This document shows, piece by piece, positions 12,187-59,011 of a DNA stretch of 64,000 nt. Source of the stretch: a virus (Duplodnaviria; Heunggongvirae; Uroviricota; Caudoviricetes); IMG/VR virus record IMGVR_UViG_3300029610_000240. The stretch is one strand, 5' to 3'. The position numbers and the translations under genes were made by a program. The notes under the pieces were generated by a model. That model did not search any database, was not told where the DNA came from, and worked only from the letters and a program-made list of their open reading frames with translations. How positions within the stretch are numbered: the stretch's first letter is position 1; each line of letters opens with the position of its first letter.

Positions 12187-12332
12187 ATATCTTTAGAATT
12201 TTAGAATAATTTCATAAAATACGCATAAAATAAAAAATATGACACATATTGATAAAAAATATGATTTTTAGTATAATAAAGGAGTGTTATTTCGTGAATT
12301 ACGAATTTAAAATTTCAAGGGGGAAAGAGAAA

Positions 12333-13969: not shown

Positions 13970-13984
13970 AGGAGTTTATTGCTA

Positions 13985-19772: not shown

Positions 19773-19799
19773 CCCCGACCTACAGTAATAACTGTTGAG

Positions 19800-20044
19800 G
19801 TCGGAGCTTGTAAAAGCTCATATTGACTAGCCTAAGTTCTTCGAGAACTACGTTGTTTATGTTATCACACCTGCGAATGATACCATAGTTTGCAGCCTTG
19901 TGTAGGCTCTGTAAAAGTTCTGTGAGGTAGGAACGGTCAACCTAGTATGTTCGATCACGACAAGCATTTACAACATTGGCGAAGGGTAACAAACTTTCAA
20001 AAGAAAGGGACAGCACTTGAGAGTAGCTGTCAAAGGTAAAAACT
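19800..20044 (+). ncRNA. Putative IscB omega-RNA scaffold (structured, about 240 nt, immediately 5' of iscB)
   Basis: No ORF. Multiple local stems, for example 'gagcttgtaaaagctc' and 'ctgtaaaagttctgtgagg...'. The position matches the known IscB omega-RNA location overlapping the left end. Confidence 0.55.
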
Positions 20045-23449: not shown

Positions 23450-23600
23450 CCTCTCCCATCTATAGAGGTGGGAGCTTCCCTAACCTCGGCAGGTTTGGTT
23501 CTCGTTCGATAGCACCAATGTGCTAAGCTTAAGCGAGCTAACCCCGTGTGTCCCACGGTTGTATTATGTGAAATTGTGGTTATGCAGTTACTATCCGCAT
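23450..23600 (-). ncRNA. Putative TnpB omega-RNA (reRNA) region overlapping the tnpB 3' end and the right-end hairpin
   Basis: Structured, ORF-free segment immediately 3' of tnpB on the minus strand. Local palindromes 'gcttaagc' and 'ccgtgtgtcccacgg'. Placement follows the known TnpB reRNA organisation. Confidence 0.45.
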
Positions 23601-32467: not shown

Positions 32468-32904
32468 GGTACCACAATAAGAGGGAAATATGAAATAACA
32501 GGTGTTCTACTATGTAGAAAATATTATATTGTTTTAAATGAGAATGGGAAAGATCATACATTTGAGATTCCTAAAAGCCAATACAATTCAATAAAGCTGA
32601 ACAGTCGTGTATTGTGTAAGATAAATTATAAAGAAAATAAAATTACAAAAATTAAAATGATCGATAAATCAAGAATTTTATATAATCCTTTCGTTCAAAA
32701 ACTTAGATAACGTAACTATAAAGAGATTCATGATGATGACTTAATTGATGATTTAAGACAAAGTTTTAAAAATATGTAACAGATATATGTAAAAACAAAT
32801 GGCAGTTACATAATGCGTAAGAATAAGAATGTATCGAATAAGTCTATATAAGTAGAATCTACCAGGTGGTAGAAAATATTAAAACTAACAGGAGATAATA
32901 TTTC

Positions 32905-36133: not shown

Positions 36134-36279
36134 GTTTTGTAATCGTGTAAAAGCACTTAAATATGCTGTAGAAGATGTTTTGTTACTGTGCAACGGAAAT
36201 ATGTCTAAATGATTTAATTTATTACTACTTTTTATTCCTTTGTTTTGTAACCGTGTAACGGAGACATGTCTAAATGGTC
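36134..36279 (+). CRISPR. Mini CRISPR array U0: three 38-nt 'GTTTTGTAACCGTGTAACGGAGACATGTCTAAATGGTC'-type repeats (the first two degenerate) with one clear 27-nt spacer
   Basis: Repeats at 36134-36171, 36177-36214 and 36242-36279. Spacer 'taatttattactactttttattccttt' at 36215-36241. Confidence 0.6.
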
Positions 36280-36356
36280 AAATTATTTTGCACGGTGCGT
36301 AAAAATAAGAAATTATCGAATAGGCTCGTTAAAACGAGAGCTGCCGTGTGGCAGTA
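36280..36356 (+). ncRNA. tracrRNA-like module cognate to U0 (anti-repeat, 'AAAAATAAG' nexus, two hairpins)
   Basis: 'aaattattttgCACGGtgcgtaaaaataagaaattatcgaataggctcgttaaaacgagagctgccgtgtggcag'. CACGG pairs with the repeat's CCGTG. The nexus and hairpins are SpCas9-tracr-like. Confidence 0.6.
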
Positions 36357-36499
36357 AATCTAAGCTACATCAATTTCAAGATTATAATTTGGGAGGAGAA
36401 AATGTTTGGGAAAATTAATGTTTTTTATTTATTGTTGGCTATATATTTGTATTATTTGTTATATTCTTGCAGCCAAGAACAAGAAAGAAGGTGTAGTGT

Positions 36500-43600: not shown

Positions 43601-43802
43601 ATCTAAAAAAAGATAGTGTTTAATATTTTTAGACAGATTCATTGGATGTATAAGAAATGTAAATAATCATCCGTTATTATCCATATCATATACAAAATGT
43701 GTATTTTGTGTAAAATGTGTTAAAAACATAATTGCCACAAATGATGATATGTGATACAATTTCATGGTAACATATGAATTGCACTCTGATGCAACGTAGT
43801 AT

Positions 43803-43880
43803 GTGATAAAGTTATGCTCGCATGAGACGAGATCTGCCGGGTGGCAGAGGTAAAAAGGCCAGAGAATATCTGGTCTTTTT
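43803..43880 (+). ncRNA. Orphan tracrRNA-like module with no adjacent repeats, plus a terminator
   Basis: 'gtgataaagttatGCTCGcatgagaCGAGatCTGCCgggtGGCAG' has the same double-hairpin tail as the other tracr modules. The terminator 'aaaaaggccagagaatatctggtcttttt' follows. Confidence 0.45.
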
Positions 43881-46126: not shown

Positions 46127-49100
46127 GTGCAGAATGGATTTTTAGGAATAACTGTTAGTAGTGAACAGGTTGGTTGGGCAGTTACAAATCCCAAATATGA
46201 GTTAGAACGTGCATCTCGAAAAGATTTATGGGGTGTAAGGCTTTTTGATAAAGCAGAAACAGCGGAAGATCGAAGAATGTTCCGTACAAACAGACGATTA
46301 AATCAGAGAAAAAAGAACAGAATACATTATCTTAGAGATATTTTCCATGAGGAAGTAAATCAAAAAGATCCTAACTTTTTTCAGCAATTAGATGAAAGCA
46401 ATTTCTGTGAAGATGATCGTACTGTAGAGTTTAATTTTGATACTAATCTTTATAAGAATCAGTTTCCAACAGTGTATCATTTAAGAAAATATCTAATGGA
46501 AACAAAAGATAAACCAGATATTCGTCTGGTATACTTAGCTTTTTCAAAATTTATGAAAAATCGAGGACATTTCTTATACAAAGGAAATCTTGGAGAGGTT
46601 ATGGACTTTGAAAATTCCATGAAAGGCTTTTGTGAAAGTTTAGAGAAATTTAATATTGACTTCCCTACATTATCAGATGAACAGGTAAAAGAAGTCCGAG
46701 ATATCTTATGTGATCATAAAATTGCTAAAACTGTGAAAAAGAAAAACATCATTACTATTACAAAAGTAAAAAGTAAGACAGCAAAAGCATGGATTGGACT
46801 GTTTTGTGGTTGCAGCGTTCCTGTTAAAGTATTATTTCAGGATATCGATGAAGAAATTGTAACGGATCCAGAAAAAATCTCATTTGAAGATGCTTCTTAT
46901 GATGATTGTATTGCAAATATTGAAAAGGGTGTCGGTATTTATTATGAAGCTATTGTTTCTGCAAAGATGCTTTTTGACTGGTCTATCCTGAATGAAATTT
47001 TAGGTGACCATCAGTTATTAAGTGATGCAATGATCGCAGAATACAATAAGCATCATGATGATTTAAAGCGTTTACAGAAGATCATTAAAGGAACTGGCAG
47101 TAGAGAATTATATCAGGATATCTTTATTAATGATGTTTCTGGAAATTATGTATGCTACGTTGGTCATGCAAAAACAATGAGTAGTGCAGATCAGAAACAG
47201 TTTTATACATTTTTAAAAAATCGATTAAAAAATGTGAATGGTATTTCATCAGAAGATGCAGAATGGATTGATACAGAGATTAAAAACGGTACTTTACTAC
47301 CAAAACAGACAAAACGTGATAACAGTGTTATTCCGCATCAATTACAGTTAAGGGAATTTGAATTAATTCTTGATAACATGCAGGAAATGTATCCATTCTT
47401 AAAAGAAAACAGAGAAAAATTATTAAAAATCTTCAATTTCGTTATTCCTTATTATGTAGGTCCGCTAAAGGGCGTTGTAAGAAAAGGAGAGAGTACAAAC
47501 TGGATGGTGCCTAAAAAAGATGGTGTGATTCATCCATGGAATTTCGATGAAATGGTAGACAAAGAAGCGTCTGCGGAATGTTTTATTTCCCGAATGACAG
47601 GAAATTGTAGTTATTTATTTAATGAAAAAGTTCTTCCAAAGAATTCTCTTCTTTATGAGACATTTGAGGTATTAAATGAGCTAAATCCATTAAAGATCAA
47701 TGGAGAACCTATCAGCGTGGAATTAAAACAGAGAATTTATGAACAGCTTTTCTTGACAGGGAAAAAAGTTACAAAAAAATCTCTGACAAAATATCTTATC
47801 AAGAATGGCTATGACAAAGATATTGAATTATCAGGTATTGATAATGAATTTCACAGCAATCTAAAATCTCATATTGATTTTGAGGATTACGATAATCTAT
47901 CTGATGAAGAAGTTGAACAGATTATTCTTAGAATTACAGTATTTGAAGATAAGCAGCTGTTAAAAGATTATTTAAATCGCGAGTTTGTAAAGCTCTCTGA
48001 GGATGAGAGAAAACAGATTTGCTCATTATCTTATAAAGGATGGGGAAACTTATCAGAAATGCTATTAAACGGTATTACTGTAACAGATTCCAATGGTGTA
48101 GAAGTTTCTGTAATGGATATGCTGTGGAATACAAACTTAAATCTGATGCAGATCTTAAGTAAGAAATATGGATATAAAGCAGAAATCGAACATTACAATA
48201 AAGAACATGAAAAAACCATTTATAATCGTGAAGATTTGATGGATTATTTAAATATTCCACCGGCTCAGCGTAGGAAGGTAAATCAGCTGATTACGATAGT
48301 AAAATCTCTCAAAAAGACATATGGAGTTCCAAATAAGATTTTCTTCAAAATAAGCAGAGAACATCAGGATGATCCAAAGAGAACTTCATCCAGAAAAGAA
48401 CAGCTAAAATATTTATACAAATCCTTAAAATCAGAAGATGAAAAACATCTTATGAAAGAGCTTGATGAATTGAACGATCATGAATTATCCAATGATAAAG
48501 TTTATCTTTATTTTCTACAGAAAGGACGCTGCATTTATTCTGGCAAGAAATTAAATCTTTCAAGATTAAGAAAATCTAATTATCAGAATGATATTGACTA
48601 CATTTATCCATTATCTGCAGTAAATGATCGTTCTATGAATAATAAGGTATTAACGGGAATCCAGGAGAATCGAGCAGACAAGTATACCTATTTTCCAGTT
48701 GATTCAGAAATTCAGAAAAAAATGAAGGGATTTTGGATGGAACTGGTTCTGCAGGGATTTATGACAAAGGAGAAATACTTCCGATTATCCAGAGAAAATG
48801 ATTTTTCAAAGAGCGAACTTGTTAGCTTTATTGAACGTGAAATTTCAGATAATCAGCAAAGTGGAAGAATGATTGCTTCTGTATTACAGTATTATTTCCC
48901 TGAATCAAAGATTGTATTTGTAAAAGAAAAGCTGATTTCTTCCTTTAAGAGGGATTTCCATTTAATTAGTAGTTATGGTCACAATCATTTACAAGCTGCA
49001 AAAGATGCTTATATTACGATTGTAGTTGGAAATGTATATCATACAAAATTTACAATGGACCCAGCAATCTATTTTAAGAATCATAAGAGAAAAGATTATG

Positions 49101-50065
49101 ATCTGAACCGATTATTCTTAGAAAATATCAGCAGAGATGGACAGATTGCATGGGAAAGTGGTCCATATGGGTCAATTCAGACGGTTCGAAAAGAATATGC
49201 TCAAAACCATATTGCTGTTACAAAAAGAGTCGTGGAAGTAAAAGGCGGCTTATTTAAGCAGATGCCATTAAAAAAAGGACATGGCGAATATCCATTAAAA
49301 ACCAATGATCCTAGATTTGGCAATATCGCACAGTATGGAGGGTATACGAATGTCACAGGTTCCTATTTTGTATTAGTAGAATCAATGGAGAAAGGGAAAA
49401 AACGTATTTCTTTAGAATATGTTCCAGTATATCTTCATGAGCGTTTAGAGGATGATCCTGGACATAAACTGTTAAAAGAATATCTGGTTGATCACAGAAA
49501 ACTTAATCATCCAAAGATTTTACTTGCAAAAGTAAGAAAAAACTCATTACTTAAGATTGACGGTTTTTATTATCGTTTAAATGGTCGAAGTGGAAATGCT
49601 CTTATCCTTACAAATGCAGTGGAATTGATCATGGATGACTGGCAGACAAAAACAGCAAACAAGATTTCTGGATACATGAAACGCAGAGCTATTGATAAGA
49701 AAGCAAGGGTTTATCAAAATGAATTCCATATTCAGGAATTAGAACAGCTTTATGATTTTTATTTAGATAAATTAGAGAATGGTGTTTATAAAAATCGTAA
49801 GAATAATCAGGCTGAATTAATTCACAACGAAAAAGAACAGTTTATGGAACTCAAGACAGAAGATCAGTGTGTATTATTGACTGAGATTAAAAAGCTTTTT
49901 GTATGTTCTCCAATGCAGGCAGACCTTACATTGATTGGTGGCAGCAAACACACAGGAATGATTGCTATGTCAAGCAATGTTACAAAAGCAGATTTTGCAG
50001 TCATTGCGGAAGATCCTTTAGGACTTAGAAACAAAGTAATTTATTCTCATAAAGGTGAGAAGTAA
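46127..50065 (+). CDS. cas9: Type II Cas9 homolog (1312 aa) with substituted catalytic residues in RuvC-I (Asp to Thr), RuvC-II (Glu to Lys) and HNH (His to Tyr); predicted nuclease-dead
   Basis: N-terminal 'FLGITVSSEQVGWAV' (compare 'IGLDIGTNSVGWAV'), 'TVYHLRKYL', 'DIRLVYLAFSKFMKNRGHFL'. RuvC-II 'KIFFKISREHQ' (compare 'NIVIEMARENQ'). HNH 'NDIDYIYPLSAVNDRSMNNKVL' (compare '[21 protein letters not shown]'). RuvC-III region 'SYGHNHLQAAKDAYI'. RBS 'aaggagg' before GTG 46127. Confidence 0.9.
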   Translation: MQNGFLGITVSSEQVGWAVTNPKYELERASRKDLWGVRLFDKAETAEDRRMFRTNRRLNQRKKNRIHYLRDIFHEEVNQKDPNFFQQLDESNFCEDDRTVEFNFDTNLYKNQFPTVYHLRKYLMETKDKPDIRLVYLAFSKFMKNRGHFLYKGNLGEVMDFENSMKGFCESLEKFNIDFPTLSDEQVKEVRDILCDHKIAKTVKKKNIITITKVKSKTAKAWIGLFCGCSVPVKVLFQDIDEEIVTDPEKISFEDASYDDCIANIEKGVGIYYEAIVSAKMLFDWSILNEILGDHQLLSDAMIAEYNKHHDDLKRLQKIIKGTGSRELYQDIFINDVSGNYVCYVGHAKTMSSADQKQFYTFLKNRLKNVNGISSEDAEWIDTEIKNGTLLPKQTKRDNSVIPHQLQLREFELILDNMQEMYPFLKENREKLLKIFNFVIPYYVGPLKGVVRKGESTNWMVPKKDGVIHPWNFDEMVDKEASAECFISRMTGNCSYLFNEKVLPKNSLLYETFEVLNELNPLKINGEPISVELKQRIYEQLFLTGKKVTKKSLTKYLIKNGYDKDIELSGIDNEFHSNLKSHIDFEDYDNLSDEEVEQIILRITVFEDKQLLKDYLNREFVKLSEDERKQICSLSYKGWGNLSEMLLNGITVTDSNGVEVSVMDMLWNTNLNLMQILSKKYGYKAEIEHYNKEHEKTIYNREDLMDYLNIPPAQRRKVNQLITIVKSLKKTYGVPNKIFFKISREHQDDPKRTSSRKEQLKYLYKSLKSEDEKHLMKELDELNDHELSNDKVYLYFLQKGRCIYSGKKLNLSRLRKSNYQNDIDYIYPLSAVNDRSMNNKVLTGIQENRADKYTYFPVDSEIQKKMKGFWMELVLQGFMTKEKYFRLSRENDFSKSELVSFIEREISDNQQSGRMIASVLQYYFPESKIVFVKEKLISSFKRDFHLISSYGHNHLQAAKDAYITIVVGNVYHTKFTMDPAIYFKNHKRKDYDLNRLFLENISRDGQIAWESGPYGSIQTVRKEYAQNHIAVTKRVVEVKGGLFKQMPLKKGHGEYPLKTNDPRFGNIAQYGGYTNVTGSYFVLVESMEKGKKRISLEYVPVYLHERLEDDPGHKLLKEYLVDHRKLNHPKILLAKVRKNSLLKIDGFYYRLNGRSGNALILTNAVELIMDDWQTKTANKISGYMKRRAIDKKARVYQNEFHIQELEQLYDFYLDKLENGVYKNRKNNQAELIHNEKEQFMELKTEDQCVLLTEIKKLFVCSPMQADLTLIGGSKHTGMIAMSSNVTKADFAVIAEDPLGLRNKVIYSHKGEK

Positions 50066-50106
50066 GTTTTCATATTTGTTCGGAAAATTCATAATCATAT
50101 CGAACG

Positions 50107-50259
50107 GCTTTGGAACTGCGTAGAACATGATATGTCTTATGGCTAAAAGAATTACAGGTGCATATTTTGAACTGTGTAAAACATGGCATATGGGAGAATT
50201 GGCAACGACTGGAACAGAACACAGTTTTGAAACTGTATAAAACATGACATGTCTTATGG
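50107..50259 (+). CRISPR. Mini CRISPR array U1: 3 repeats (consensus GTTTTGAAACTGTATAAAACATGACATGTCTTATGG) and 2 spacers (22 and 29 nt), immediately 3' of cas9
   Basis: Repeats at 50107-50142, 50165-50194 (degenerate) and 50224-50259. Spacers 'ctaaaagaattacaggtgcata' and 'agaattggcaacgactggaacagaacaca'. Confidence 0.7.
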
Positions 50260-50385
50260 TTCAAATTATTTATACAGTACGTGAAAATAAGAAATTATCG
50301 AATAAACTCGTTTAGACGAGAACTGCTAGAGGCAGTAATTGCAGAAAATGTCATGAACCCCAAGCGACTTCGTCGGCCGGGGGTT
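50260..50385 (+). ncRNA. tracrRNA-like module cognate to U1, plus a terminator
   Basis: 'ttcaaattatTTATACAGTacgtgaaaataagaaattatcgaataaactcgtttagacgagaactgctagaggcag'. TATACAGT is an exact complement of the repeat's ACTGTATA. Terminator 'ccccaagcgacttcgtcggccgggggttt'. Confidence 0.7.
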
Positions 50386-50448
50386 TACGCACCAATTTGA
50401 TAATATTTCTAATCATATATTACCTTATATGATTAATGGAGAAAATAG

Positions 50449-50598
50449 ATGTTTCAAGTAAAAAATAAAGAAACTGGGCAAGAATATACCGTATATGCTG
50501 TCGGGGATGAATATCTGACAAAATTTCTGATTTATGAAGATGGACATTGGAAATGGCAGACTATAGATGATTTTGTTCCAGTGATTGTAGATTAAGAA
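50449..50598 (+). CDS. Small protein (49 aa)
   Basis: RBS 'aatggagaaaatagatg'. Protein 'MFQVKNKETGQEYTVYAVGDEYLTKFLIYEDGHWKWQTIDDFVPVIVD'. Confidence 0.35.
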
Positions 50599-50612
50599 AG
50601 CGAGAAATTCAC

Positions 50613-50957
50613 ATGAAGATTACAAGAACGATTAAATTTAAAGAATATATCCTCGGATATTTAGAAAAATTAGAGGTTCATGAAGTTCGACGCATTGAAA
50701 AAGCCGGACGATTAAGCCGTGACATTATCAAAGAGGAATCTGAAAAATGCGGACACAAATTAATGATTCTTGATACGATTGAAAAAGAAAGACGTTATGA
50801 ATGTTCATTAGAAGATTTCTTATCCGTTGCAAGAGAGATTCCACTAAAAAATCAGGAGACTGTTAATACAGAAGAAAAAAATGTTCAGGAAGATAATTCA
50901 GAGGATTCTAAGTCTAAGTTAGGCGATTCTGACTGTGCCCCTTGGATTGAAGATTAA
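50613..50957 (+). CDS. hypothetical protein (114 aa) lying between guide modules U1 and U2
   Basis: ORF with RBS 'aagaaagcgagaaattcacatg'. Confidence 0.45.
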   Translation: MKITRTIKFKEYILGYLEKLEVHEVRRIEKAGRLSRDIIKEESEKCGHKLMILDTIEKERRYECSLEDFLSVAREIPLKNQETVNTEEKNVQEDNSEDSKSKLGDSDCAPWIED

Positions 50958-50958
50958 T

Positions 50959-51117
50959 GTTATTTTGAGAAATGATTGCAAATGTGATCGTAGCGTACCT
51001 TACTTCACAGCTTAGTTTTGGAACTATGTAAAATCAAATGATTGCAAATGGGCAGAGAGAAAATTTGAAAAATTGTCTGTGTTTTGGAACTATGTAAAAT
51101 CAAATGATTGCAAATGG
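50959..51117 (+). CRISPR. Mini CRISPR array U2: degenerate repeat plus 2 perfect 37-nt repeats 'GTTTTGGAACTATGTAAAATCAAATGATTGCAAATGG', with 2 spacers (28 and 29 nt)
   Basis: Repeats at 50959-50986 (3' half only), 51015-51051 and 51081-51117. Spacers 'atcgtagcgtaccttacttcacagctta' and 'gcagagagaaaatttgaaaaattgtctgt'. Confidence 0.75.
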
Positions 51118-51191
51118 TCAAAGTAATTGCATGGCGTGTAAAAATAAGAATTTATCGAAATAATTTGCTCCGGCGAAATCTGCAAGATGCA
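51118..51191 (+). ncRNA. tracrRNA-like module cognate to U2
   Basis: 'tcaaagtaattgCATGGcgtgtaaaaataagaatttatcgaaataatttgctccggcgaaatCTGCAagaTGCAG'. Confidence 0.65.
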
Positions 51192-51285
51192 GAAATCAAG
51201 CTGATCGATGCTTTACATATTTATCTATTTCAATATTTCTTCAACCATATACATTGATCAGCTTTAATAAAAAGAATTAAAATTA

Positions 51286-51446
51286 CGAAAATAAAATTGA
51301 ATGATTCCAATGGATAGTCGAAAAAGAATTGGATAGTCGACGGGTTTTAGAATAGTGTAAAATTGAATGATTCTAAGGGTTAGATACTCCACTAGATAGC
51401 AAAGTACTTGTTTTAGAATAGTGTAAAATTAAATGATTCTAAGGGG
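51286..51446 (+). CRISPR. Mini CRISPR array U3: degenerate repeat plus 2 repeats 'GTTTTAGAATAGTGTAAAATTGAATGATTCTAAGGG(G)', with 2 spacers (30-31 nt)
   Basis: Repeats at 51286-51313 (3' half), 51344-51379 and 51410-51446. Spacers 'atagtcgaaaaagaattggatagtcgacgg' and 'ttagatactccactagatagcaaagtactt'. Confidence 0.75.
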
Positions 51447-51527
51447 TCAAATAGATTCTATACAATGCGTGAAAATAAGAAACTTATCGAACAAACCTGT
51501 GTAGGAAACAGGAACTGCCGAGGGCAG
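51447..51527 (+). ncRNA. tracrRNA-like module cognate to U3
   Basis: 'tcaaatagATTCTAtacaatgcgtgaaaataagaaacttatcgaacaaaCCTGTgtaggaaACAGGaaCTGCCgagGGCAG'. ATTCTA pairs with the repeat's TAGAAT. Confidence 0.65.
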
Positions 51528-51575
51528 TAAAAATAAAAAGCATATTTTTATTATGTTTTATTTTATGATGAAGAG

Positions 51576-51794
51576 GTGGATGATGGTTCTATCTCTGTTT
51601 TTGAGAAAATGGATGCATTGCAAAATGCAACAATCTTAGAAGTACAAATACATATTGATGACTTAAAAGATAAATTGGAAGAAGTAAAATTTACTCTTAA
51701 AATATCAGGTTTGTATTTGAAGAAGATAATTTTATGGATTCTTATTATAAATCTTATACGTTACCGATTGTATATCACAAAAACTATTTATTAA
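51576..51794 (+). CDS. Small hypothetical protein (72 aa)
   Basis: ORF track only; weak. Confidence 0.25.
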   Translation: MDDGSISVFEKMDALQNATILEVQIHIDDLKDKLEEVKFTLKISGLYLKKIILWILIINLIRYRLYITKTIY

Positions 51795-51823
51795 GTATTA
51801 ACAATGATAAGGAATAACAATAA

Positions 51824-53755
51824 ATGGAAATAGATTACAGAAAAGAATTAAATAAGAGTCAATATGAAGCTGTTACAACGACAGAAGGACCAGTCCTAAT
51901 CCTTGCCGGTGCCGGAACTGGCAAAACTCGTTGTATGGTATATCGTGTGGCATATCTGATTGAAAAAGGCGTGTCACCCAATAATATCTTATTATTGACC
52001 TTTACAAATAAAGCAGCAAATGAAATGAAGCAAAGGGCAGCAGATATGCTTGATGAACGATGTAGTCAAATTACTGCATGTACATATCATTCATTCTGTG
52101 CAAAGATGCTTCGCAAATATTCACAACTGATTGGAATTCAATCAGATTATACAATTATTGATCCGGGAGATTGTGCAGATATCATATCGATCATCGAAAC
52201 AGAACACGGTATGGATAAAGTAAAAGATTTTCCAAGATCATCTCAACTGGTATCAGCACATAGCAAAGCCTTAAATACGAATCAGTCATTAGAGGATACT
52301 TTGTTTGATATGCTCGGTAAATGGAAGTATATGGAAATCGAAAGATTCATTCCAGATATAAAGAAAATCTTAGCGGATTATCAATCATACAAAAAACAAA
52401 ACAACATGATGGATTATGATGATTTGCTAATCAATTTTATATCTGTATTGAAAAGAAACCCTTCTATAAAGAATAAATTAGCTGATATTTATCAGTATAT
52501 TATGATCGACGAATATCAGGATTCTAATTATTTACAGGAAAAGATTATTTTTATGTTACGTGAAAAGAATCGTAACTTAGCAGTGGTAGGTGATGATTAC
52601 CAATGCATCTATGGATTTAGAGGAAGTATGGTAGAAAATATCATTAATTTTCCACAAAAGATGTCCGGATGTAAAGTTGTTTACTTAACACAGAATTATC
52701 GCAGCAATCAAGAGATCATGGATTTATCCAATATTGTTATGAAAAAACATTCACTGGAAGGTTTTTTTAAAAAGCTTGTCGCAACTCATGTGGCCAATAT
52801 TCAGCCATTGCTAGTTCGATCAGAGGACGAGGGCGAAGAAGCTTCTTATATTTTAAATAAGATTATGGCATTACATGATGAAGAAGAGATTCCGTATCAT
52901 GAAATTTGTGTTCTTGAAAGAAGTTCTTATCATTCTGTAAGACTAGAAGCACTTTTAAATAAAATGAAAATCCCATATGACAAATATGGTGGAATGAAGT
53001 TTTTTGATTATGATCATATCAAAAACTTCTTATGCTTTTTGCGATGTCAGATAAATCCACATGATGAAATTGCGTGGTTTCGACTATTAAAGTTATTTGA
53101 TGGTATTGGAAATGTTTATGCCAGAAATATCGCAGCAACATGTAAAACTCTTGGATTAGAGGGACTTGTTCAACACAAATACATAAAAAGAAAATTTCAG
53201 CCGGATCTTGAAAATTTAAAGAGTTTTATTGAAAAGCTTAATGATCAAGATTTTCAGATCGAATTGCAAAGCATTAAATCATTTTATTCACGTTTAATGG
53301 ACATTACATTAATGCTGATGAAAACATCGGAGAAGAAACGTAGGGAGCTTGCTAGAGCAAATAAACAAGCGGTCCGCGATTTTGATACACTGATTGAAAT
53401 GGCAGATGGATATGATTCTCCAGTGACATTTCTGGAAGAAATAATGCTTGAAGCCAGTCCTCAGAAAGAGGAAGAGGAAGATCGAATGGTTATATCTACA
53501 ATTCATTCCGCAAAAGGCTTAGAGTTTCACTCTGTTTTTGTTATGAACTGCGTAGATACAATGTTTCCATCTACAGATAAAGATCAGATTGGAACAGTAG
53601 AAGATAACGAAGAGTTGAGATGCTTCTATGTGGCAATAACACGGGCAAAAGAACGATTATTTTTAATGGCACCGAAATATATAGCCAAATTTGGATGTGT
53701 TGAAGAGGGAATTATCTCCCATTTTATTAGTGATGTTTTTCAAGTAAAGGAGTAA
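51824..53755 (+). CDS. UvrD/PcrA/Rep-family superfamily-1 DNA helicase
   Basis: Walker A 'ILAGAGTGKT'. Motif IV 'QNYRSNQEI'. Motif VI 'VISTIHSAKGLEFHSVFVM'. 'VGDDYQCIYGFRG' is motif III-like. Confidence 0.85.
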   Translation: MEIDYRKELNKSQYEAVTTTEGPVLILAGAGTGKTRCMVYRVAYLIEKGVSPNNILLLTFTNKAANEMKQRAADMLDERCSQITACTYHSFCAKMLRKYSQLIGIQSDYTIIDPGDCADIISIIETEHGMDKVKDFPRSSQLVSAHSKALNTNQSLEDTLFDMLGKWKYMEIERFIPDIKKILADYQSYKKQNNMMDYDDLLINFISVLKRNPSIKNKLADIYQYIMIDEYQDSNYLQEKIIFMLREKNRNLAVVGDDYQCIYGFRGSMVENIINFPQKMSGCKVVYLTQNYRSNQEIMDLSNIVMKKHSLEGFFKKLVATHVANIQPLLVRSEDEGEEASYILNKIMALHDEEEIPYHEICVLERSSYHSVRLEALLNKMKIPYDKYGGMKFFDYDHIKNFLCFLRCQINPHDEIAWFRLLKLFDGIGNVYARNIAATCKTLGLEGLVQHKYIKRKFQPDLENLKSFIEKLNDQDFQIELQSIKSFYSRLMDITLMLMKTSEKKRRELARANKQAVRDFDTLIEMADGYDSPVTFLEEIMLEASPQKEEEEDRMVISTIHSAKGLEFHSVFVMNCVDTMFPSTDKDQIGTVEDNEELRCFYVAITRAKERLFLMAPKYIAKFGCVEEGIISHFISDVFQVKE

Positions 53756-53789
53756 TTTATAGTGAAATGCTTAAATTATGTTGTCAATG

Positions 53790-53965
53790 TGGATTTGAAT
53801 CCATGTAAAAATGTAAAGCAAATGATTCCAAATGGCAATCTTCTCGAATTGTCGTGTAGGCAAAGTTTTGAAACCATGTAAAAAAATGATTCCAAATGGG
53901 TATGCATTGGTGTTTGAAGCGTTTGTGTGTTTTGGAACCATGTAAAAGCAAATGATTCCAAATGG
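53790..53965 (+). CRISPR. Mini CRISPR array U4: 3 repeats (consensus GTTTTGGAACCATGTAAAAGCAAATGATTCCAAATGG; first degenerate) and 2 spacers of 29 nt
   Basis: Repeats at about 53790-53835, 53865-53899 and 53929-53965. Spacers 'caatcttctcgaattgtcgtgtaggcaaa' and 'gtatgcattggtgtttgaagcgtttgtgt'. Confidence 0.75.
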
Positions 53966-54043
53966 TTAAAAGCAGATTACATGGTGTGTCAAAATAAGAA
54001 CTTATCGAATAGATCTATATAAATGGAATCTGCCAGGTGGCAG
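53966..54043 (+). ncRNA. tracrRNA-like module cognate to U4
   Basis: 'ttaaaagcagattaCATGGtgtgtcaaaataagaacttatcgaatagatctatataaatggaatCTGCCaggtGGCAG'. CATGG pairs with the repeat's CCATG. Confidence 0.65.
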
Positions 54044-54051
54044 AAAAAAAC

Positions 54052-54128
54052 TGAAAAAGCTGATCAATAATAACTGTTGTTACCATAATATTAATTTATG
54101 TTTTTGTATTTTGTCTATTGATCAGCTT
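54052..54128 (+). terminator. Long-stem terminator after module U4 (16-bp inverted repeat 'aaaaagctgatcaata ... tattgatcagcttttt')
   Basis: Inverted repeat at 54052-54067 and 54113-54128, followed by a T-run, directly upstream of the next gene. Confidence 0.5.
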
Positions 54129-54133
54129 TTTGC

Positions 54134-55411
54134 ATGAAAATGAAAGTTATAAATATGGCAATGAAGAAAGTCGGTGATGATAAATTGAGAAGAAAAGTAG
54201 TCAGTTTTTTACTTGTTACACTTATGATGGCAACGATCACTCCTGTACATGCAGATGAGGTGTCAGAACCAACAACTGCTGCGACAGAAGTTACAACAAC
54301 AGAAACGAAGCCGACTACGACAGAAAAAAAAGAAACAACTCATCATAAGGAAAAAACAGTAAAAAAAGATAAGAAAACAAAAAAGAAAAATACTAAAAAA
54401 GATGGGAAAAAGAAAAGTAAACAAAAAGAAAAATCTAAAAAAAAGGAAAACAAAAAATCAACAATTCCGATGCCTAAACGGGCTGTAAAGAAAAAAGGTT
54501 GTGATACTGTACAAAAGAAGATTGTAAAAATGCAATCAAAGATTAAAAAGTTGCAGAAAGAACAAAAAAATATCCGAAAAGAGATCAAAAAAGAAAATAA
54601 TAAAAAAGAAGCACTGCAGCGATTTTATCAGCAATATCCTACAGAGCGTGAAGCAACTATGAAACTGCGAGGACAAAAGATTACACCTCTTACTAAGATT
54701 TCAGAGGAAGACGATGCATTAAGAAATAGATTATTCAGTTTAGCTAATACATTTCATGACGATCAACTACGTAAAATTGCCTCTGAGTACGTCTTTGGCG
54801 TAAGAGATCTTAATTTTGAAGACCTGTTAAACGAGGATGATACCATTGACCTTAATACATATTTAAAAGGCAAATATATTGCTCCAACGCAGAATATGCA
54901 GATAGGAATTAAAAATAAGGATCAAGAAATTCAAAAATTAAAGAAACAGATCAAAGAGGAAAAGAAAACCAGATTTTTTGATCCGAAAAACGTAAATTCT
55001 ATTAGCAATATTACAGTTGATGATGCTAAAAAGATGTTGTCTGGAACGCAATTATATCCAGAAGCAGAAGCTTTTGTTAAAGCAGAAAGAATTCATCATG
55101 TAAATGCAGTCTTTTTAATGGGAATTGCTGCACATGAAAGTGCCTGGGGAACAAGCCGGCGTGCCAGAGAAGATAATAATTTAACTGGATATGGAGTTTA
55201 CTCAGATAGTGCAAAGGGCATCAATAAGACAAGCAAAGAAGAAGGATTATTAGCCACCGCTGAGACATTGCACGAACGATACTTAACCCCTGGAGGCAGC
55301 TATTACGAAGGAACTTCCGTTGCTGATGTAAATAAACATTATTGTGTCGGAAATGAATGGGCCGGAGCGGTAGTTGGTTATGCTTATCAATTAATGAATA
55401 AACTAAATTAG
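54134..55411 (+). CDS. Secreted GH73 N-acetylglucosaminidase-like cell-wall hydrolase with an N-terminal K-rich, low-complexity region
   Basis: Signal 'VVSFLLVTLMMATITPVHA'. The glucosaminidase signature 'GIAAHESAWGTSRRAREDNNLTGYG' matches the FlgJ/AcmA 'ESGWG...NNxFG' motif. Confidence 0.7.
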   Translation: MKMKVINMAMKKVGDDKLRRKVVSFLLVTLMMATITPVHADEVSEPTTAATEVTTTETKPTTTEKKETTHHKEKTVKKDKKTKKKNTKKDGKKKSKQKEKSKKKENKKSTIPMPKRAVKKKGCDTVQKKIVKMQSKIKKLQKEQKNIRKEIKKENNKKEALQRFYQQYPTEREATMKLRGQKITPLTKISEEDDALRNRLFSLANTFHDDQLRKIASEYVFGVRDLNFEDLLNEDDTIDLNTYLKGKYIAPTQNMQIGIKNKDQEIQKLKKQIKEEKKTRFFDPKNVNSISNITVDDAKKMLSGTQLYPEAEAFVKAERIHHVNAVFLMGIAAHESAWGTSRRAREDNNLTGYGVYSDSAKGINKTSKEEGLLATAETLHERYLTPGGSYYEGTSVADVNKHYCVGNEWAGAVVGYAYQLMNKLN

Positions 55412-55537
55412 ATATCATCAAAGAGGTTTTGGTTAACTAAAGGTTGATTATCGGTATATCATTGTTCGGTGTCTGTAGACAGCATTTTTTCAAATCTATA
55501 GTTGTTATAAAATAAGAGACACTTTCATGTATAGTGG

Positions 55538-55594
55538 AGTTTAGTTTCAGAAGTTTATAAAAACAGATAACTATTAATGATTATCTGTTTCATG
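55538..55594 (+). repeat. Single extended CRISPR-like repeat of module U5 (related to the U6 repeat, carrying an internal palindrome AACAGATAA/TTATCTGTT)
   Basis: 'gtttagtttcagaagtttataaaaacagataactattaatgattatctgtttcatgg' against the U6 repeat 'gctttagaagtctataaaacagaatcattgtcaatgg'. Confidence 0.45.
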
Positions 55595-55658
55595 GATTGT
55601 GTAAAAATAAGCAAATTAGCGAATATGCTCGTTGAAACGAGAGCTGTTAGATAACAGC
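55595..55658 (+). ncRNA. tracrRNA-like module U5; the second hairpin is a variant (GCTGTTAGATAACAGC)
   Basis: 'attgtgtaaaaataagcaaattagcgaatatGCTCGttgaaaCGAGaGCTGTtagatAACAGC'. Confidence 0.5.
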
Positions 55659-55710
55659 TAAAAATGTAACTATATAAATTAATTTGTAAATTATAGGGAG
55701 GACTATTTTA

Positions 55711-55869
55711 GTGAAACACGGTAAAGTTCCAACAAGAAATCAAAAAGAACTTATGTTAAAAAATAATCTTAATCCGAAAGAATGGCTGGTTGTAAAGAAA
55801 ATGGCGGATGGATTTGAGATTGTTAATAGAGAAAATGAAGCAGATCGTAAATTTCTGTATTGTTAAGGT
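55711..55869 (+). CDS. Small protein (52 aa, GTG start)
   Basis: RBS 'tagggaggactattttagtg'. Protein 'VKHGKVPTRNQKELMLKNNLNPKEWLVVKKMADGFEIVNRENEADRKFLYC'. Confidence 0.35.
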
Positions 55870-55875
55870 GAAATA

Positions 55876-56091
55876 ATGATGGATATTTACACAAGATTAT
55901 TGATGATGGATATTATGATATCGGCAGTAGCTATTATGGTAAATATCTTAGAAAATTGTCCGATTAACGGTAAAATACACAATATTTCAAGAATTTTAAT
56001 CATATCTAGTATTGCTGCAGACATTATCTTACTTTTAGGAATTGTCAATACGTTCATCTCATACAGTATCCTGTATTCTTATTTTAAATAA
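55876..56091 (+). CDS. Small membrane protein (71 aa, 2 TM)
   Basis: Hydrophobic ORF. Confidence 0.35.
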   Translation: MMDIYTRLLMMDIMISAVAIMVNILENCPINGKIHNISRILIISSIAADIILLLGIVNTFISYSILYSYFK

Positions 56092-56250
56092 GATACAGAA
56101 GAATCATTGTCGATGTTAAACATATTATGTGAAACATTATTGTCAGGCTTTAGAAGTCTATAAAACAGAATCATTGTCAATGAGATCAAATTCTTTATGA
56201 CAACGCAATACAGCTTTAGAAGTCTATAAAACAGAATCATTGTCAATGGT
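56091..56250 (+). CRISPR. Mini CRISPR array U6: degenerate repeat plus 2 repeats 'GCTTTAGAAGTCTATAAAACAGAATCATTGTCAATGG', with 2 spacers of 30 nt
   Basis: Repeats at 56091-56116 (3' half), 56147-56183 and 56214-56250. Spacers 'ttaaacatattatgtgaaacattattgtca' and 'agatcaaattctttatgacaacgcaataca'. Confidence 0.75.
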
Positions 56251-56325
56251 CAAATAAGCAGACTGCGTAAAAATAAGAATTTTATCGATATTGCTCGTGT
56301 AGTCGAGAACTGCCAAGTGGCAGCA
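56251..56325 (+). ncRNA. tracrRNA-like module cognate to U6
   Basis: 'tcaaataagcAGACTgcgtaaaaataagaattttatcgatattGCTCGtgtagtCGAGaaCTGCCaagtGGCAG'. AGACT pairs with the repeat's AGTCT. Confidence 0.65.
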
Positions 56326-56352
56326 ACATTTATAATAAAAAGGAGGAATTAT

Positions 56353-57006
56353 ATGCGAAAACAAGTTTTTGCAACGATTGGTTGTGCTATCTTTTTACTG
56401 ATCGTAGTAGGTTTCCTGATGATGGCATATTCTTCTTATACAAAACATCAAGAGGAAATTGCTGAACAAAAATTAATAAAGCAGGAAAGAAAAGAATCAC
56501 GAAAAACACTTCAATCATCAGAAGAAAGGGAATGGAATCTGGACTGCCTGTGGGAGCATGTTATCGAAATTGATGGTACAGAAATTGAAGTACCAATTAA
56601 ATACAATGATCTGATCAAGACACTTGGAAACAAAGTGAAAGAAGCTAAAGATAAAAAAATCATGCTACAAAATGGACAGGTTTTATGGCTGAATTGTACA
56701 AAAGATGAAAAAGACTCTATGAATAATGGAAAAGATAAAGCAATGGTTTATGGTATATCTACACAACAGGACGCTAAAGATTCTTGTGTTACAATTCAGA
56801 AAATCAAAACTGGAATGTCTTATGATAAATTAAAGGAATATTATGAGACTCCAGTTACGAAAGATGATTCCCAAAGTATTTCTGTACTGCAATATGCTGA
56901 TCCGAAATCTGATTTAGATATCACACAGCAGAATGTGACTGTTTATCTGGATAACAATACAGTGGTTGGATTAGGTATATATTATGACGGAAGTAAGGAG
57001 GAATAG
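56353..57006 (+). CDS. Membrane-anchored extracytoplasmic protein (N-terminal TM)
   Basis: RBS 'aaaaggaggaattatatg'. Anchor 'ATIGCAIFLLIVVGFLMMAY'. Confidence 0.5.
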   Translation: MRKQVFATIGCAIFLLIVVGFLMMAYSSYTKHQEEIAEQKLIKQERKESRKTLQSSEEREWNLDCLWEHVIEIDGTEIEVPIKYNDLIKTLGNKVKEAKDKKIMLQNGQVLWLNCTKDEKDSMNNGKDKAMVYGISTQQDAKDSCVTIQKIKTGMSYDKLKEYYETPVTKDDSQSISVLQYADPKSDLDITQQNVTVYLDNNTVVGLGIYYDGSKEE

Positions 57007-57007
57007 G

Positions 57008-57238
57008 ATGGAAAATAAAAATAAACCAAACCAAGAATTATTAACTATTAAAGAAACGGCAAAATTATTAAAAGTAAATCCACATAGAGTATATGACTTA
57101 GTGAGAATGGGAATTTTGCCAGCACTAAAATTAGGAAGCCTGAAAATACGAAGACAGGCATTAAATGAATTCCTTGAAGAATATGAAGGGATGGATCTGA
57201 CAGATTTAAATGAGATCAAAAAATTAGAAGTTAAATAA
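57008..57238 (+). CDS. xis: Excisionase/HTH_17-like DNA-binding protein
   Basis: RBS 'aaggaggaataggatg'. 'LLTIKETAKLLKVNPHRVYDLVRMGILPALKLG' is the Xis/MerR-type HTH. Confidence 0.65.
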   Translation: MENKNKPNQELLTIKETAKLLKVNPHRVYDLVRMGILPALKLGSLKIRRQALNEFLEEYEGMDLTDLNEIKKLEVK

Positions 57239-57660
57239 AAAGGAGCTGTTATGTCGGGATAATCTGATATAATAGCTCTTTTTTTGTAGCAAATTCTAAA
57301 TACTAATTAACAAATTAACTATATTATAAAGGATAATTTGATGATGGTAAATAATGAAGTCCCACGTCAGGCCCACGGAGAGTGCGGCACGAATAAGCAC
57401 GTATATGCATAATATACATAAAAATAGCATGCGTGATACGTTCTGGTTGTGAAAAATATACGAAAAAAGCACAAAATAACACGATATAACATAGGTAGTC
57501 ATTCGCAGTTGGGTTGGGTAACAACCCAATGGTAGGAGCTACAGTAGCTGTAGCTGTATCTATTGAGGAAGCTGCTAAAGCAGGTAAATTCTAGGAAACC
57601 ACGTATTTAAGCGGTTTTTTGAGGGTGTTAGAAGTGGTAAAAAGTAGTGAAATGTAGACA

Positions 57661-57706
57661 ATCTCTATATTATCTCTACACTATCTCTATACCACATCTC
57701 TACACT
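57661..57706 (+). repeat. Four direct copies of ATCTCTA(C/T)A between xis and the int 3' end; candidate arm-type recombinase binding sites
   Basis: 'atctctatattatctctacactatctctataccacatctctacac'. Confidence 0.5.
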
Positions 57707-57769
57707 CAAAAATGTGAATAAGAAGAGAGAGCCAATTAATTTTGACTCTCTTTTTTTCTTCGTTTTATT

Positions 57770-59011
57770 TTATTTTATTTTCATGATCTCGGCCATTAGC
57801 CACTCTGGTTTTCGTTTTGTGTAAGTAGCTTCTGTGATATCGTTGATCTTGTGACCCATCATATATTTTAATGCATATTCATCTACTTTATCTCTTTTTG
57901 CCATCGTGGAAAACTGAATCCTTGGATCATGAGCTCTGTGATCTGGATTGAGCTCTAATTTCTTAACAATCTTTTCGAATCGATGTCTATATTTATCATA
58001 CGTCATTTTTAAGCTACTTCGGTGTGTTTTTGTATCAGTGCAGTTGATTAAATAATCACTTCCAAGATTTATTGCTTCCTGGTATCGATGCTTGACTAGA
58101 TCACGAATCCGTGGATGGATTGGAACCAAGCGATCTTTACCTGCGTCAGTCTTCATACCGCCGATAAAAAACCAATTTTCCAGATCTACATTTTTTAATT
58201 CAATTAGACCCAATTCTTGTGGTCGCCATCCAGAGTAGCATTGGATCAGAATCACATCCACATAATCAGTATCATACAAATGATCCCATAATTTTTTTAT
58301 TTCTTCATCCGTAAAATCAATATGGTCCTTCTTCGCTTCTTTAACATCTTTAATAACATCATCAGACAAATTAAAGGTCCTTGCATAATTCTTGTCTACT
58401 AATTCATACTCTAGCGCATAATCCAACATTAAGTTGAATAGAGATTTTATCTTTGTCTTTGTAGTAGGAGATGCGTGTTTTTCTTTACCATCGACTACAT
58501 ACGTTCCATCTTCCATACAACCTTTAATATGTCGGGCACGTAAATCTTTTGCACGCATATCATAAACAGCAGAGCAGTAGTTCCAGGCAGATTTAATTGT
58601 ACGTTCACTTGAAGGACTTGACAGGGATTCAAAATATTTATCAGTCCACTTTTCGTATAATTGCTCGACTGTCAGATCAGAGTCAAGATCATACGGATTT
58701 TTATGATATTCAAGTAATGCAGCGTAAGCATCATTATAGGTTTTGAAATATGTTTCTGGTTTCAATGATTTATAAATAGGTTTTCCATAAAAATTTTTTC
58801 CAACACAGACTAATGCACGAAAAGGCTTTCTAAGATTTTGATTTTTTAATTCGGATATAGTGCCAAATCCATTTGGAAGACGTTTTCGTTTATTAGTTTT
58901 TCTTTGTTGTTGTTTAATAACTTTTGTATCTAGAGGATAACCGCAGTGAGGACAAGTTATTGCCTTATCACTTACCTGCAATTGACATTCTGGACATTTG
59001 ATCAGTGCCAT
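57770..59011 (-). CDS. int: Tyrosine recombinase/integrase with an N-terminal zinc-ribbon
   Basis: C-terminal catalytic region 'RAHDPRIQFSTMAKRDKVDEYALKYMMGHKINDITEATYTKR' (R...HxxR...Y). N-terminal 'CPECQLQVSDKAITCPHCG'. Confidence 0.85.
   Translation of the reverse strand: MALIKCPECQLQVSDKAITCPHCGYPLDTKVIKQQQRKTNKRKRLPNGFGTISELKNQNLRKPFRALVCVGKNFYGKPIYKSLKPETYFKTYNDAYAALLEYHKNPYDLDSDLTVEQLYEKWTDKYFESLSSPSSERTIKSAWNYCSAVYDMRAKDLRARHIKGCMEDGTYVVDGKEKHASPTTKTKIKSLFNLMLDYALEYELVDKNYARTFNLSDDVIKDVKEAKKDHIDFTDEEIKKLWDHLYDTDYVDVILIQCYSGWRPQELGLIELKNVDLENWFFIGGMKTDAGKDRLVPIHPRIRDLVKHRYQEAINLGSDYLINCTDTKTHRSSLKMTYDKYRHRFEKIVKKLELNPDHRAHDPRIQFSTMAKRDKVDEYALKYMMGHKINDITEATYTKRKPEWLMAEIMKIK

Follow-up and report, generated by a model that had tools for sequence, protein, structure and literature searches.

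We analysed a 64,000-nucleotide stretch of DNA from IMG/VR virus record IMGVR_UViG_3300029610_000240 (hereafter the window), in which short CRISPR units lie scattered around a type II-A-like cas9 gene. The reading that we favour, with a probability of roughly 0.65, is that these units are self-contained guide-RNA cassettes of a binding-only type II-A derivative that has no adaptation genes, rides on a conjugative element and uses natural single-guide-like RNAs. The wider picture, in which a common gut conjugative element carries a nuclease-dead Cas9 (in some versions with the HNH domain deleted) and single-guide cassettes that gain spacers through borrowed host machinery, strikes us as an even bet. 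An initial annotation of the window had described six mini-arrays, U1 to U6, each fused to its own co-varying trans-activating CRISPR RNA (tracrRNA). All six were found on the plus strand where it had placed them, and their sub-features could be mapped exactly (Table 1). Its total proved too low, as matches to the RNA family RAGATH-30 revealed two more units, UA and U0, further upstream, and its statement that no single array stands next to cas9 needs amending, as U1 starts 42 nt after the cas9 stop codon. The annotation had also not seen the lost nuclease residues, the lack of an adaptation module, the setting on an integrative conjugative element (ICE) or the presence of the tail in the Rfam catalogue, all of which change what the units mean.

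The eight units are all on the plus strand and share one order of parts: one to three repeats, a linker, an anti-repeat, the string (G/U)(C/U)GU(A/G/C)AAAAUAAGAAnUUAUCGAA and two hairpins. The repeats are type II-A-like, 35-37 nt long and start with GTTTT or GCTTT; spacers measure 21-31 nt, linkers 8-11 nt, mostly with TCAAA, and anti-repeats about 20 nt. In multi-repeat units the 5'-most repeat is always truncated or degenerate. U5 and UA, the latter 13 kb upstream of cas9, have a single repeat without its 3' half and are bare repeat-loop-anti-repeat hairpins; U5 is a literal single-guide-like hairpin. We take the AAAAUAAG junction of the units to resemble the S. pyogenes guide.

Table 1. Features of the window, with positions counted from its first nucleotide
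Feature	Coordinates	Strand	Parts or basis	RAGATH-30 score (bits)
UA	32763-32873	+	solitary repeat 32763-32802; anti-repeat 32803-32824; tail 32825-32873	71.4
U0	36134-36355	+	degenerate repeats 36134-36165, 36177-36212; spacer 36213-36241; terminal repeat 36242-36277; linker 36278-36287; anti-repeat 36288-36306; tail 36307-36355	78.6
U1	50107-50336	+	three repeats: 50107-50142, 50164-50194 (degenerate), 50224-50259 (terminal); spacers 50143-50163, 50195-50223; linker 50260-50268; anti-repeat 50269-50288; tail 50289-50336	75.7
U2	50967-51193	+	partial repeat 50967-50984; repeats 51015-51051, 51081-51117; spacers 50985-51014, 51052-51080; linker 51118-51126; anti-repeat 51127-51145; tail 51146-51193	71.9
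U3	51292-51528	+	partial repeat 51292-51313; repeats 51344-51379, 51410-51445; spacers 51314-51343, 51380-51409; linker 51446-51455; anti-repeat 51456-51476; tail 51477-51528	64.9
U4	53792-54044	+	degenerate repeat 53792-53835; repeats 53865-53899, 53929-53965; spacers 53836-53864, 53900-53928; linker 53966-53976; anti-repeat 53977-53995; tail 53996-54044	76.4
U5	55544-55658	+	repeat 5' part 55544-55570; 10-nt loop 55571-55580; anti-repeat 55581-55608; tail 55609-55658	64.7
U6	56095-56324	+	partial repeat 56095-56115; repeats 56147-56182, 56213-56248; spacers 56116-56146, 56183-56212; linker 56249-56256; anti-repeat 56257-56274; tail 56275-56324	67.4
cas9, type II-A-like, 1312 aa, predicted nuclease-dead	46127-50065	+	Pfam and alignment	
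Degenerate tail-like small RNA gene	43764-43880	+	TTGCCA-17-TACAAT promoter, two tail-type hairpins, intrinsic terminator	
UvrD/PcrA-type helicase gene among the guide units	51824-53755	+	Pfam UvrD-helicase and UvrD_C	
Probable right-end recombination module of the element	56984-59011		Pfam and ends of related elements	
HTH_17 excisionase-like open reading frame	56984-57238	+	Pfam	
Tyrosine integrase	57770-59011	-	Pfam	

An Rfam scan of the whole window matched all eight tails to RAGATH-30 (RF03055) over the full length of the model (positions 1-59), at 64.7-78.6 bits and E values of 1e-10 to 1e-13. Because these scores lie above the gathering threshold of 59.5 bits, chance is excluded. The matches that exposed the two upstream units are at 32817-32875 (UA) and 36299-36357 (U0), and units of related loci match the family too. 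RAGATH-30 is an orphan Rfam motif from the survey of Weinberg et al. (2017) with no function attached; its 59-nt model comprises only the tail, and the anti-repeat and repeats of the element lie outside it. The Rfam tracrRNA model RF02348, which was built from other Cas9 lineages, stayed below its gathering threshold of 70 bits, its best score being 22.8 bits (E=3) over U1.

Minimum-free-energy folds from the last repeat through the tail have the layout of a Cas9 single guide: a lower stem of one G.U and four U-A pairs, a bulge, an upper stem of 7-11 bp, a nexus-like stem of two pairs (G71:C80 and A72:U79) and then two hairpins. Two canonical relatives with the gene order cas9-cas1-cas2-csn2 (the Lachnospiraceae/Clostridia loci L197 and L199) encode a tracrRNA upstream of cas9, on the cas9 strand and under a dedicated promoter and terminator, in which ...UUUUACAUCAUAAGUUCAAAUAAGAAUUUAUCGAAA precedes two hairpins. 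The entire array repeat of L197 finds its complement in the 5' part of this RNA. The RAGATH-30 model aligns end to end with the tracrRNA of the canonical relatives (29.3 bits, E 0.056). On the grounds of the single-guide-like fold and this homology, we conclude that the tail is a true type II-A tracrRNA scaffold in a form peculiar to this lineage, in agreement with the earlier claim that a tracrRNA follows each array in cis.

The degenerate small RNA gene at 43.8 kb lies upstream of cas9, like the tracrRNA of the canonical relatives, and is conserved in L001. Its promoter, immediately 5' of it, is close to consensus and its terminator is strong, but its nhmmer match to the tail is partial (43813-43848), it has no anti-repeat and its nexus is degenerate. 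We considered it as a tracrRNA acting in trans for all arrays and rejected it, its complementarity to the repeats falling within about 1.5 standard deviations of shuffled sequences. The gene may mark the place, 5' of cas9, where the ancestral tracrRNA once stood.

Co-variation between repeat and anti-repeat was assessed on a wider set of units. Pattern scans of IMG/VR and metagenome contigs gave 66 loci and Cas9 relatives led to nine more; a hidden Markov model (HMM) of the tail recovered 184 units in 73 sources, which reduced to 53 distinct unit sequences, and 29 distinct types were aligned. In the in-register structure, 90.4% of cells across these types hold standard pairs, whereas shifting the 3' partners by 1-3 columns leaves 36-48%. 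Changes on both sides were seen at 17 of the 31 pairs, and none of 500 shuffles reached any observed covariation measure. Compensatory changes affect six of 11 upper-stem pairs (repeat nucleotides 9-19), every one of the five pairs in hairpin 1 and five of six in hairpin 2, and in U5 a nexus pair changes in compensatory fashion from A:U to C:G. An orthologous U1 variant (L131, L132 and L162) illustrates the same behaviour: window U1 has the repeat AACUGUAUAAA with the anti-repeat UUUAUACAGU, and the variant has AACUAUGUAAA with UUUACAUAGU, the repeat change from CTGTAT to CTATGT being mirrored by ATACAG to ACATAG in the anti-repeat. The co-variation that the initial annotation had reported is thus real, although the pairing it gave for U3 (TAGAAT with ATTCTA) is out of register, the in-register helix being AAUAGUGUA:UAUACAAU.

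The same alignment fixes the strand. A G1.U68 pair is present in 29 of 29 sequences, together with many other U.G pairs, and because such pairs would be mismatched on the opposite strand, the plus strand is the RNA strand. A candidate role of the tails as minus-strand terminators was ruled out on this basis, as the G.U pairs, G1.U68 in all 29 sequences among them, become A.C mismatches. The annotation had also regarded each duplex as independently maintained and had proposed a comparison of cognate with non-cognate pairing. The longest in-register helix was formed by the cognate anti-repeat in seven of eight columns, but cross-pairing is possible among U0, U2 and U4 and between U5 and U6, so that orthogonality is only partial. 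Unconstrained RNAduplex energies averaged -9.3 kcal/mol for cognate and -6.0 kcal/mol for non-cognate pairs; these energies are noisy as a test of orthogonality, and in-register pair counts were used instead.

Comparison of near-identical elements in about 70 gut-metagenome loci showed that the arrays change. Elements with 97-100% identical Cas9 have the same units in the same places and different spacers of about 30 nt. There were 21 different arrays of 1-4 spacers among 32 copies of U4 and 17 different arrays among 22 copies of U2, and the tracr-proximal spacers of U3 vary widely across samples. Because near-identical elements hold so many different spacers in U2-U4, the mini-arrays are CRISPR, as first described, and they turn over. 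The guides of U1 are identical across samples, barring point changes; in U6, spacer 1 is fixed and spacer 2 is present or absent; and U5, which has no upstream spacer, is identical from repeat to anti-repeat in 18 of 18 copies, the full unit existing in three versions that differ by single bases in the tail. In more distant relatives (Cas9 71-74% identical) arrays reach seven repeats, each array ending in its own tracr tail. By inspection, inverted repeat ends are kept in units with changing spacers (UUUGGAA...UUCCAAA in U4 and UUAGAAU...AUUCUAA in U3) and lost in units with fixed guides, which would fit recognition of the kept ends by an integrase.

Spacer family S011 (CAATAGGTGCTAATCCTTTACTGGTTGACGT) occurs in four versions in U4 arrays (L142, L154, L170, L001, L160 and others). 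Read in one frame (TSTSKGLAPI), the versions are set apart by synonymous third-codon changes and one Ala/Val difference, the pattern that would arise if a single site had been sampled independently from divergent versions of the same coding gene. S011 stands at varying array positions and once as a tandem duplicate, and in L181 one U4 spacer is chimeric, joining parts of two spacers that neighbour each other. The first U3 spacer (51314-51343) has an internal direct repeat, with GGATAGTCGA present twice. As it is found in almost every U3 copy with point changes only, it behaves as a leader sequence and not as a spacer. Copies of the tail alone, with nexus and hairpins but neither repeat nor anti-repeat, occur in L005 (8040-8092) and L003 (8659-8712), so cassettes evidently decay too.

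We next turn to the effector. The best Protein Data Bank matches of the cas9 product are Cas9 structures, and Pfam recognised Cas9_REC (1.5e-138), Cas9_PI (2e-57), the Cas9-BH bridge helix and HNH_4, so the protein has the architecture of a type II Cas9, with bridge helix, REC lobe, an HNH domain within RuvC and a domain that interacts with the protospacer-adjacent motif (PAM). We aligned it and its clade with four canonical relatives of about 42% identity and with S. pyogenes Cas9, for which an approximate reference sequence was used whose motifs agree with the four database relatives. At the position of D10 the canonical GLDxG is GITVS in this clade (Thr); at E762, IFVEMARE is IFFKISRE (Lys); at H983, LHHAKDAY is LQAAKDAY (Ala, Ser or Tyr); and at H840, DIDHIYPQ is DIDYIYPL (Tyr), with His kept in the clade member P0020. 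The window protein accordingly has T, K, A and D at the RuvC sites D10, E762, H983 and D986, and D, Y and N at the HNH sites D839, H840 and N863, whereas the four canonical relatives keep the whole RuvC and HNH catalytic set. The loss spans a clade of 71-100% identity (P0002 at 89%, P0019-21 at 71-74%). A group of sixteen near-identical proteins, P0003-P0018, measures 1151-1159 aa, about 155 aa less, and has no HNH Pfam match. In one of these, P0008 (L001 10001-13471), a clean in-frame deletion of residues ~742-897 removes the RuvC-II motif, HNH and both linkers; its element keeps all six downstream units, with U4 spacers unlike those of the window. Because D10, E762 and H983 of RuvC and H840 of HNH are lost in the window protein, we predict that this Cas9 most likely binds its targets rather than cutting them.

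These residues bear on two other explanations. Ordinary nuclease-active type II immunity with an unusual array layout, the implicit view of the initial annotation, could point to the full-length Cas9 with its HNH domain, to the NCBI annotation as Cas9 endonuclease and to spacer turnover in the arrays. We judge it highly improbable, since D10, E762 and H983 are lost clade-wide and H840 is Tyr in most members while canonical relatives keep all four, and since near-identical elements tolerate the natural in-frame loss of HNH and still retain their arrays. The lost residues would also suit a decaying relic, in which Cas9 and cassettes no longer function and drift along with a conjugative element that is itself successful; the failure to find targets in the databases searched, the degenerate 5' repeats, the tails without repeats and the one degenerate tail point the same way. 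Yet cas9 is under strong purifying selection and is not decaying: the ratio of non-synonymous to synonymous substitution rates (dN/dS) is 0.05-0.10 against three relatives over 1312 codons, the HNH segment included, with dS from 0.7 to about 2. Compensatory changes maintain the helices, new spacers keep arising, and the clade is conserved at 71-100% identity, the protein being present on at least 1000 public contigs. A relic is, in the light of these data, barely credible.

No adaptation module was found with the effector. When Cas1, Cas2 and Csn2 of L197 were used as tblastn queries, none matched the window or the roughly 75 unit-bearing loci, and Pfam placed the open reading frames neighbouring cas9 in other families, leaving it without the adjacent adaptation module of subtype II-A.

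We propose the following mechanism for the cassettes. Each would be read on the plus strand as spacer, repeat or repeats, linker, anti-repeat, nexus and two hairpins, and the terminal repeat would fold back on the anti-repeat of its own transcript to give a natural single-guide-like RNA; for the repeats further upstream, in that unit or in a compatible one, another tracr copy would have to act in trans. The guide RNA would then load the adjacent Cas9, which has kept its bridge helix, REC lobe and PAM-interacting domain, and the complex would bind spacer-matching DNA without cutting it. Interference would be by occupancy, with target transcription, replication or transfer blocked, and the neighbouring UvrD helicase possibly contributes. 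U2, U3 and U4 presumably gain spacers through host Cas1-Cas2-Csn2 acting in trans, and U1, U5, U6, U0 and UA would serve as fixed guides. The biological role would be conflict with, or silencing of, competing mobile elements. We infer these steps throughout, from transcription and processing of the RNA and its folding in cis in vivo to binding without cleavage, spacer acquisition in trans and the role itself.

Several observations weigh against this explanation. The spacer search suggested by the initial annotation returned no protospacer from PLSDB, INPHARED, IMG/VR, the window or related loci. None of 102 spacer families matched PLSDB, a collection with few plasmids and ICEs from gut Clostridia; exact-match scans of IMG/VR with the spacers returned only the arrays themselves; and the sole match in the phage search was marginal, at 28/30. 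Guide matches of at least 11 nt anchored at the 3' end were absent from the rest of the 64-kb window except for one AT-rich 13-mer, and related unit-bearing loci held none. The polarity of spacer gain is contradictory: U2 and U3 suggest insertion beside the tracrRNA and part of U4 suggests insertion at the far end, and arrays have probably recombined with one another. P0020 retains H840 and the HNH region is under purifying selection, so that some clade members may use HNH as a nickase or in another role. A promoter scan found 39 promoter-like sites where 32 were expected, none of them convincing 5' of the units, and a terminator scan found no plus-strand U-tract terminator 3' of any tail. The cognate helices of U3 and U6 are weak. 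Lastly, the UvrD gene is missing from the more distant relatives L005 and L008.

The marginal phage-search match pairs spacer S079 (from L008) with 28 of 30 nt at L196 2804-2832 (MT837920.1), in a gene resembling that for a peptide chain release factor. This scaffold was deposited as an unverified 'Bacteriophage sp.' and is bacterial in appearance.

The fixed guides raise the question of whether the system serves gene regulation and not defence. U1, U5, U6, U0 and UA would then steer dead Cas9 to promoters of the element or host and control excision, transfer or cargo expression, by analogy with the long tracrRNA of S. pyogenes (tracr-L) at the cas9 promoter. Five of the eight units do have guides conserved across samples, the effector is predicted to be binding-only, and the units stand inside co-directional operons without terminators, U6 for example lying 11 nt before a ribosome-binding site. 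We nevertheless consider this account unlikely, given the lack of 3'-anchored guide matches in the window (the AT-rich 13-mer apart) and in related loci, and given the rapid spacer change in U2-U4, which it leaves unexplained. It could coexist with the guide-cassette explanation.

The surroundings of the tails have features of their own. The 11 nt between the end of the U6 tail and the ribosome-binding site of the next gene belong to a gap (56324-56353) that contains no terminator; therefore U6, at least, would have to be co-transcribed with a protein gene or freed by processing. A long inverted repeat, AAGCTGATC(G/A)AT...ATTGATCAGCTT, occurs in two copies (51198-51264 and 54057-54128) with arms of 13-16 bp and a loop of 41-48 nt. 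The copies begin no farther than a dozen nucleotides or so from the final hairpins of U2 and U4; none would be expected by chance, and they could be a large-loop terminator or a recombination site. We also asked whether the ATGG-TCAAAT junction could be an extended -10 element from which a free tracrRNA is transcribed, and dropped the idea as unsupported, as position 2 of the hexamer is not the critical A.

A further explanation is anti-CRISPR mimicry. Dead Cas9 and its diversified tracrRNAs would capture the CRISPR RNAs (crRNAs) of a type II system in the host or recipient, either sequestering them or placing a complex unable to cut on protospacers of the element itself; the element would thereby be protected, and the local arrays would be secondary. 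There is a precedent in the phage II-C2 Cas9, which has an inactive RuvC and an apparently active HNH, no arrays, an SNF2 helicase neighbour and a tracrRNA that matches host repeats (PMC10910872, PMC12669027); in the 2025 classification this phage II-C variant, with active HNH and no arrays, is the only type II entry with a dead RuvC (PMC12669027). The element studied here resembles it in having a Cas9 on a mobile element with RuvC inactivated, a nearby tracrRNA and a helicase neighbour, and it also has several anti-repeat versions. It differs in that its Cas9 is II-A-like with H840 replaced by Tyr or HNH deleted, the helicase is UvrD and it has changing arrays of its own. What turns us away from mimicry, to which we give a small chance, is that each anti-repeat matches and co-varies with the repeat a few nucleotides upstream in its own cassette and that the cassettes bear their own fast-changing spacers, whereas the precedent is without arrays; by inspection, moreover, the anti-repeats pair imperfectly with the sole available repeat of a canonical relative.

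The guide-cassette explanation also places the element among better known systems. It shares with canonical type II-A (L197, L199 and S. pyogenes) the Cas9 domain architecture, at about 42% identity to Cas9 of the L197/L199 type, 36-nt repeats starting with GTTTT, spacers of about 30 nt, a tracrRNA core AAAUAAGAAUUUAUCGAA with two hairpins, and a duplex of lower stem, bulge and upper stem. In contrast to them it is without cas1, cas2 and csn2 and has lost the nuclease residues. Its anti-repeat, shortened to about 20 nt, finds partners in the 5' half of the repeat alone; its tracrRNA follows the last repeat at a distance of 8-11 nt, fused to it on one strand, where the canonical one is a separate gene upstream of cas9 that has a promoter and a terminator to itself; and each element has eight tracrRNA copies with diverged repeat/anti-repeat pairs.

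Engineered CRISPR interference consists of dead Cas9 and a single guide, and S. pyogenes tracr-L is a natural single guide with one fixed 11-nt guide against the cas9 promoter. As in both, the cassettes unite repeat-like and anti-repeat segments in a single RNA with the fold of a guide scaffold; unlike tracr-L, they sit at the end of spacer-acquiring arrays, and no 3'-anchored self-match of the tracr-L type (at least 11 nt) was found near cas9 or elsewhere in the window bar the one AT-rich 13-mer. Binding-only type IV and V systems of plasmids combine a nuclease-deficient effector with mini-arrays on a mobile element that has no adaptation genes, with a helicase partner in IV-A. The effector families and guide-RNA architecture of IV-A (CasDinG), V-M Cas12m and V-C Cas12c (PMC12669027) are unrelated to those of the element, whose binding-only mechanism is predicted.

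The nearest described system appears, from the account of the locus given in PMC8743540, to be CampyICE1 of Campylobacter. That account describes a Cas9 on an ICE without cas1 and cas2, several short dispersed arrays (three in CampyICE1), families of spacer variants and repeat changes mirrored in the tracrRNA (PMC8743540). CampyICE1 is described there as having a type II-C Cas9, whose nuclease motifs its authors examined, and one tracrRNA, in opposite orientation and inside one array only, whereas the element has a II-A-derived, predicted-dead Cas9 and one co-oriented tracrRNA per array. Most CampyICE1 spacers are said to match known plasmids (PMC8743540), as opposed to none of the 102 families here in PLSDB with its sparse gut Clostridia. 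A literature search that did not cover all journals found no paper on RAGATH-30, on Anaerostipes Cas9 with a tracrRNA or on natural dead Cas9.

If the guide-cassette explanation is true, nature reached both inventions of CRISPR interference, a catalytically dead Cas9 and a single guide made by fusing repeat and anti-repeat, each of which is unexpected for type II; the natural HNH-deleted Cas9 would also come close to a laboratory deletion. The orphan family RAGATH-30 would receive a function as the 3' scaffold of a tracrRNA. Type II would have its own equivalent of the binding-only type IV and V-M systems with which mobile elements fight one another, and the growing group of nuclease-less CRISPR systems of plasmids and conjugative elements would gain a type II member. 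Diverged repeat/anti-repeat pairs in one cell would furthermore amount to natural, partly orthogonal scaffolds for one Cas9, of use in multiplexing. With an abundant butyrate producer as host and so widespread a protein, the biology lends itself to tests and matters for gene flow among gut bacteria.

The system is cargo of an integrative conjugative element of Anaerostipes hadrus, a human-gut bacterium. NCBI names a member of the cluster at least 90% identical to the window protein as Cas9 of A. hadrus (WP_044924278.1). In related loci, Tn916-type Xis and Int lie directly 3' of the block formed by U6 and p217, with chromosomal genes beyond; the setting is an ICE. The window has an HTH_17 protein and a tyrosine integrase (Table 1), beyond which are ordinary metabolic genes. 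Phage and plasmid collections held no DNA nearly identical to the region, and a query of a genome collection with the single Cas9 protein gave no match; an 18-base tail pattern, too loose for the purpose, gave 120 matches in the genome collection that are due to chance, the tail HMM confirming 0 of 120.

The genes surrounding the guide units share one orientation. Among them, the UvrD gene holds the same position in L001 and L003, and the helicase may have a role in the CRISPR system. Other genes of the window encode LPXTG adhesins, ATLF-like and papain-like proteases and a cell-wall hydrolase. Two further RNA-guided protein families share the 64-kb cargo region with Cas9. At 19765-21319, a HEARO RNA (112 bits) lies immediately 5' of a gene for a 424-aa protein with RRXRR and HNH domains, that is, IscB with its omega RNA; and a TnpB (OrfB_IS605 with a Cas12f-like TNB domain), the third such family, is encoded at 23580-24698 on the minus strand. 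Defence genes are stacked on the element in addition to Cas9, with a PstI/BsuBI-type restriction endonuclease and an Eco57I-type methylase adjoined by an AAA_21 (AbiEii-like) ATPase (13979-16359 and 12249-13451).

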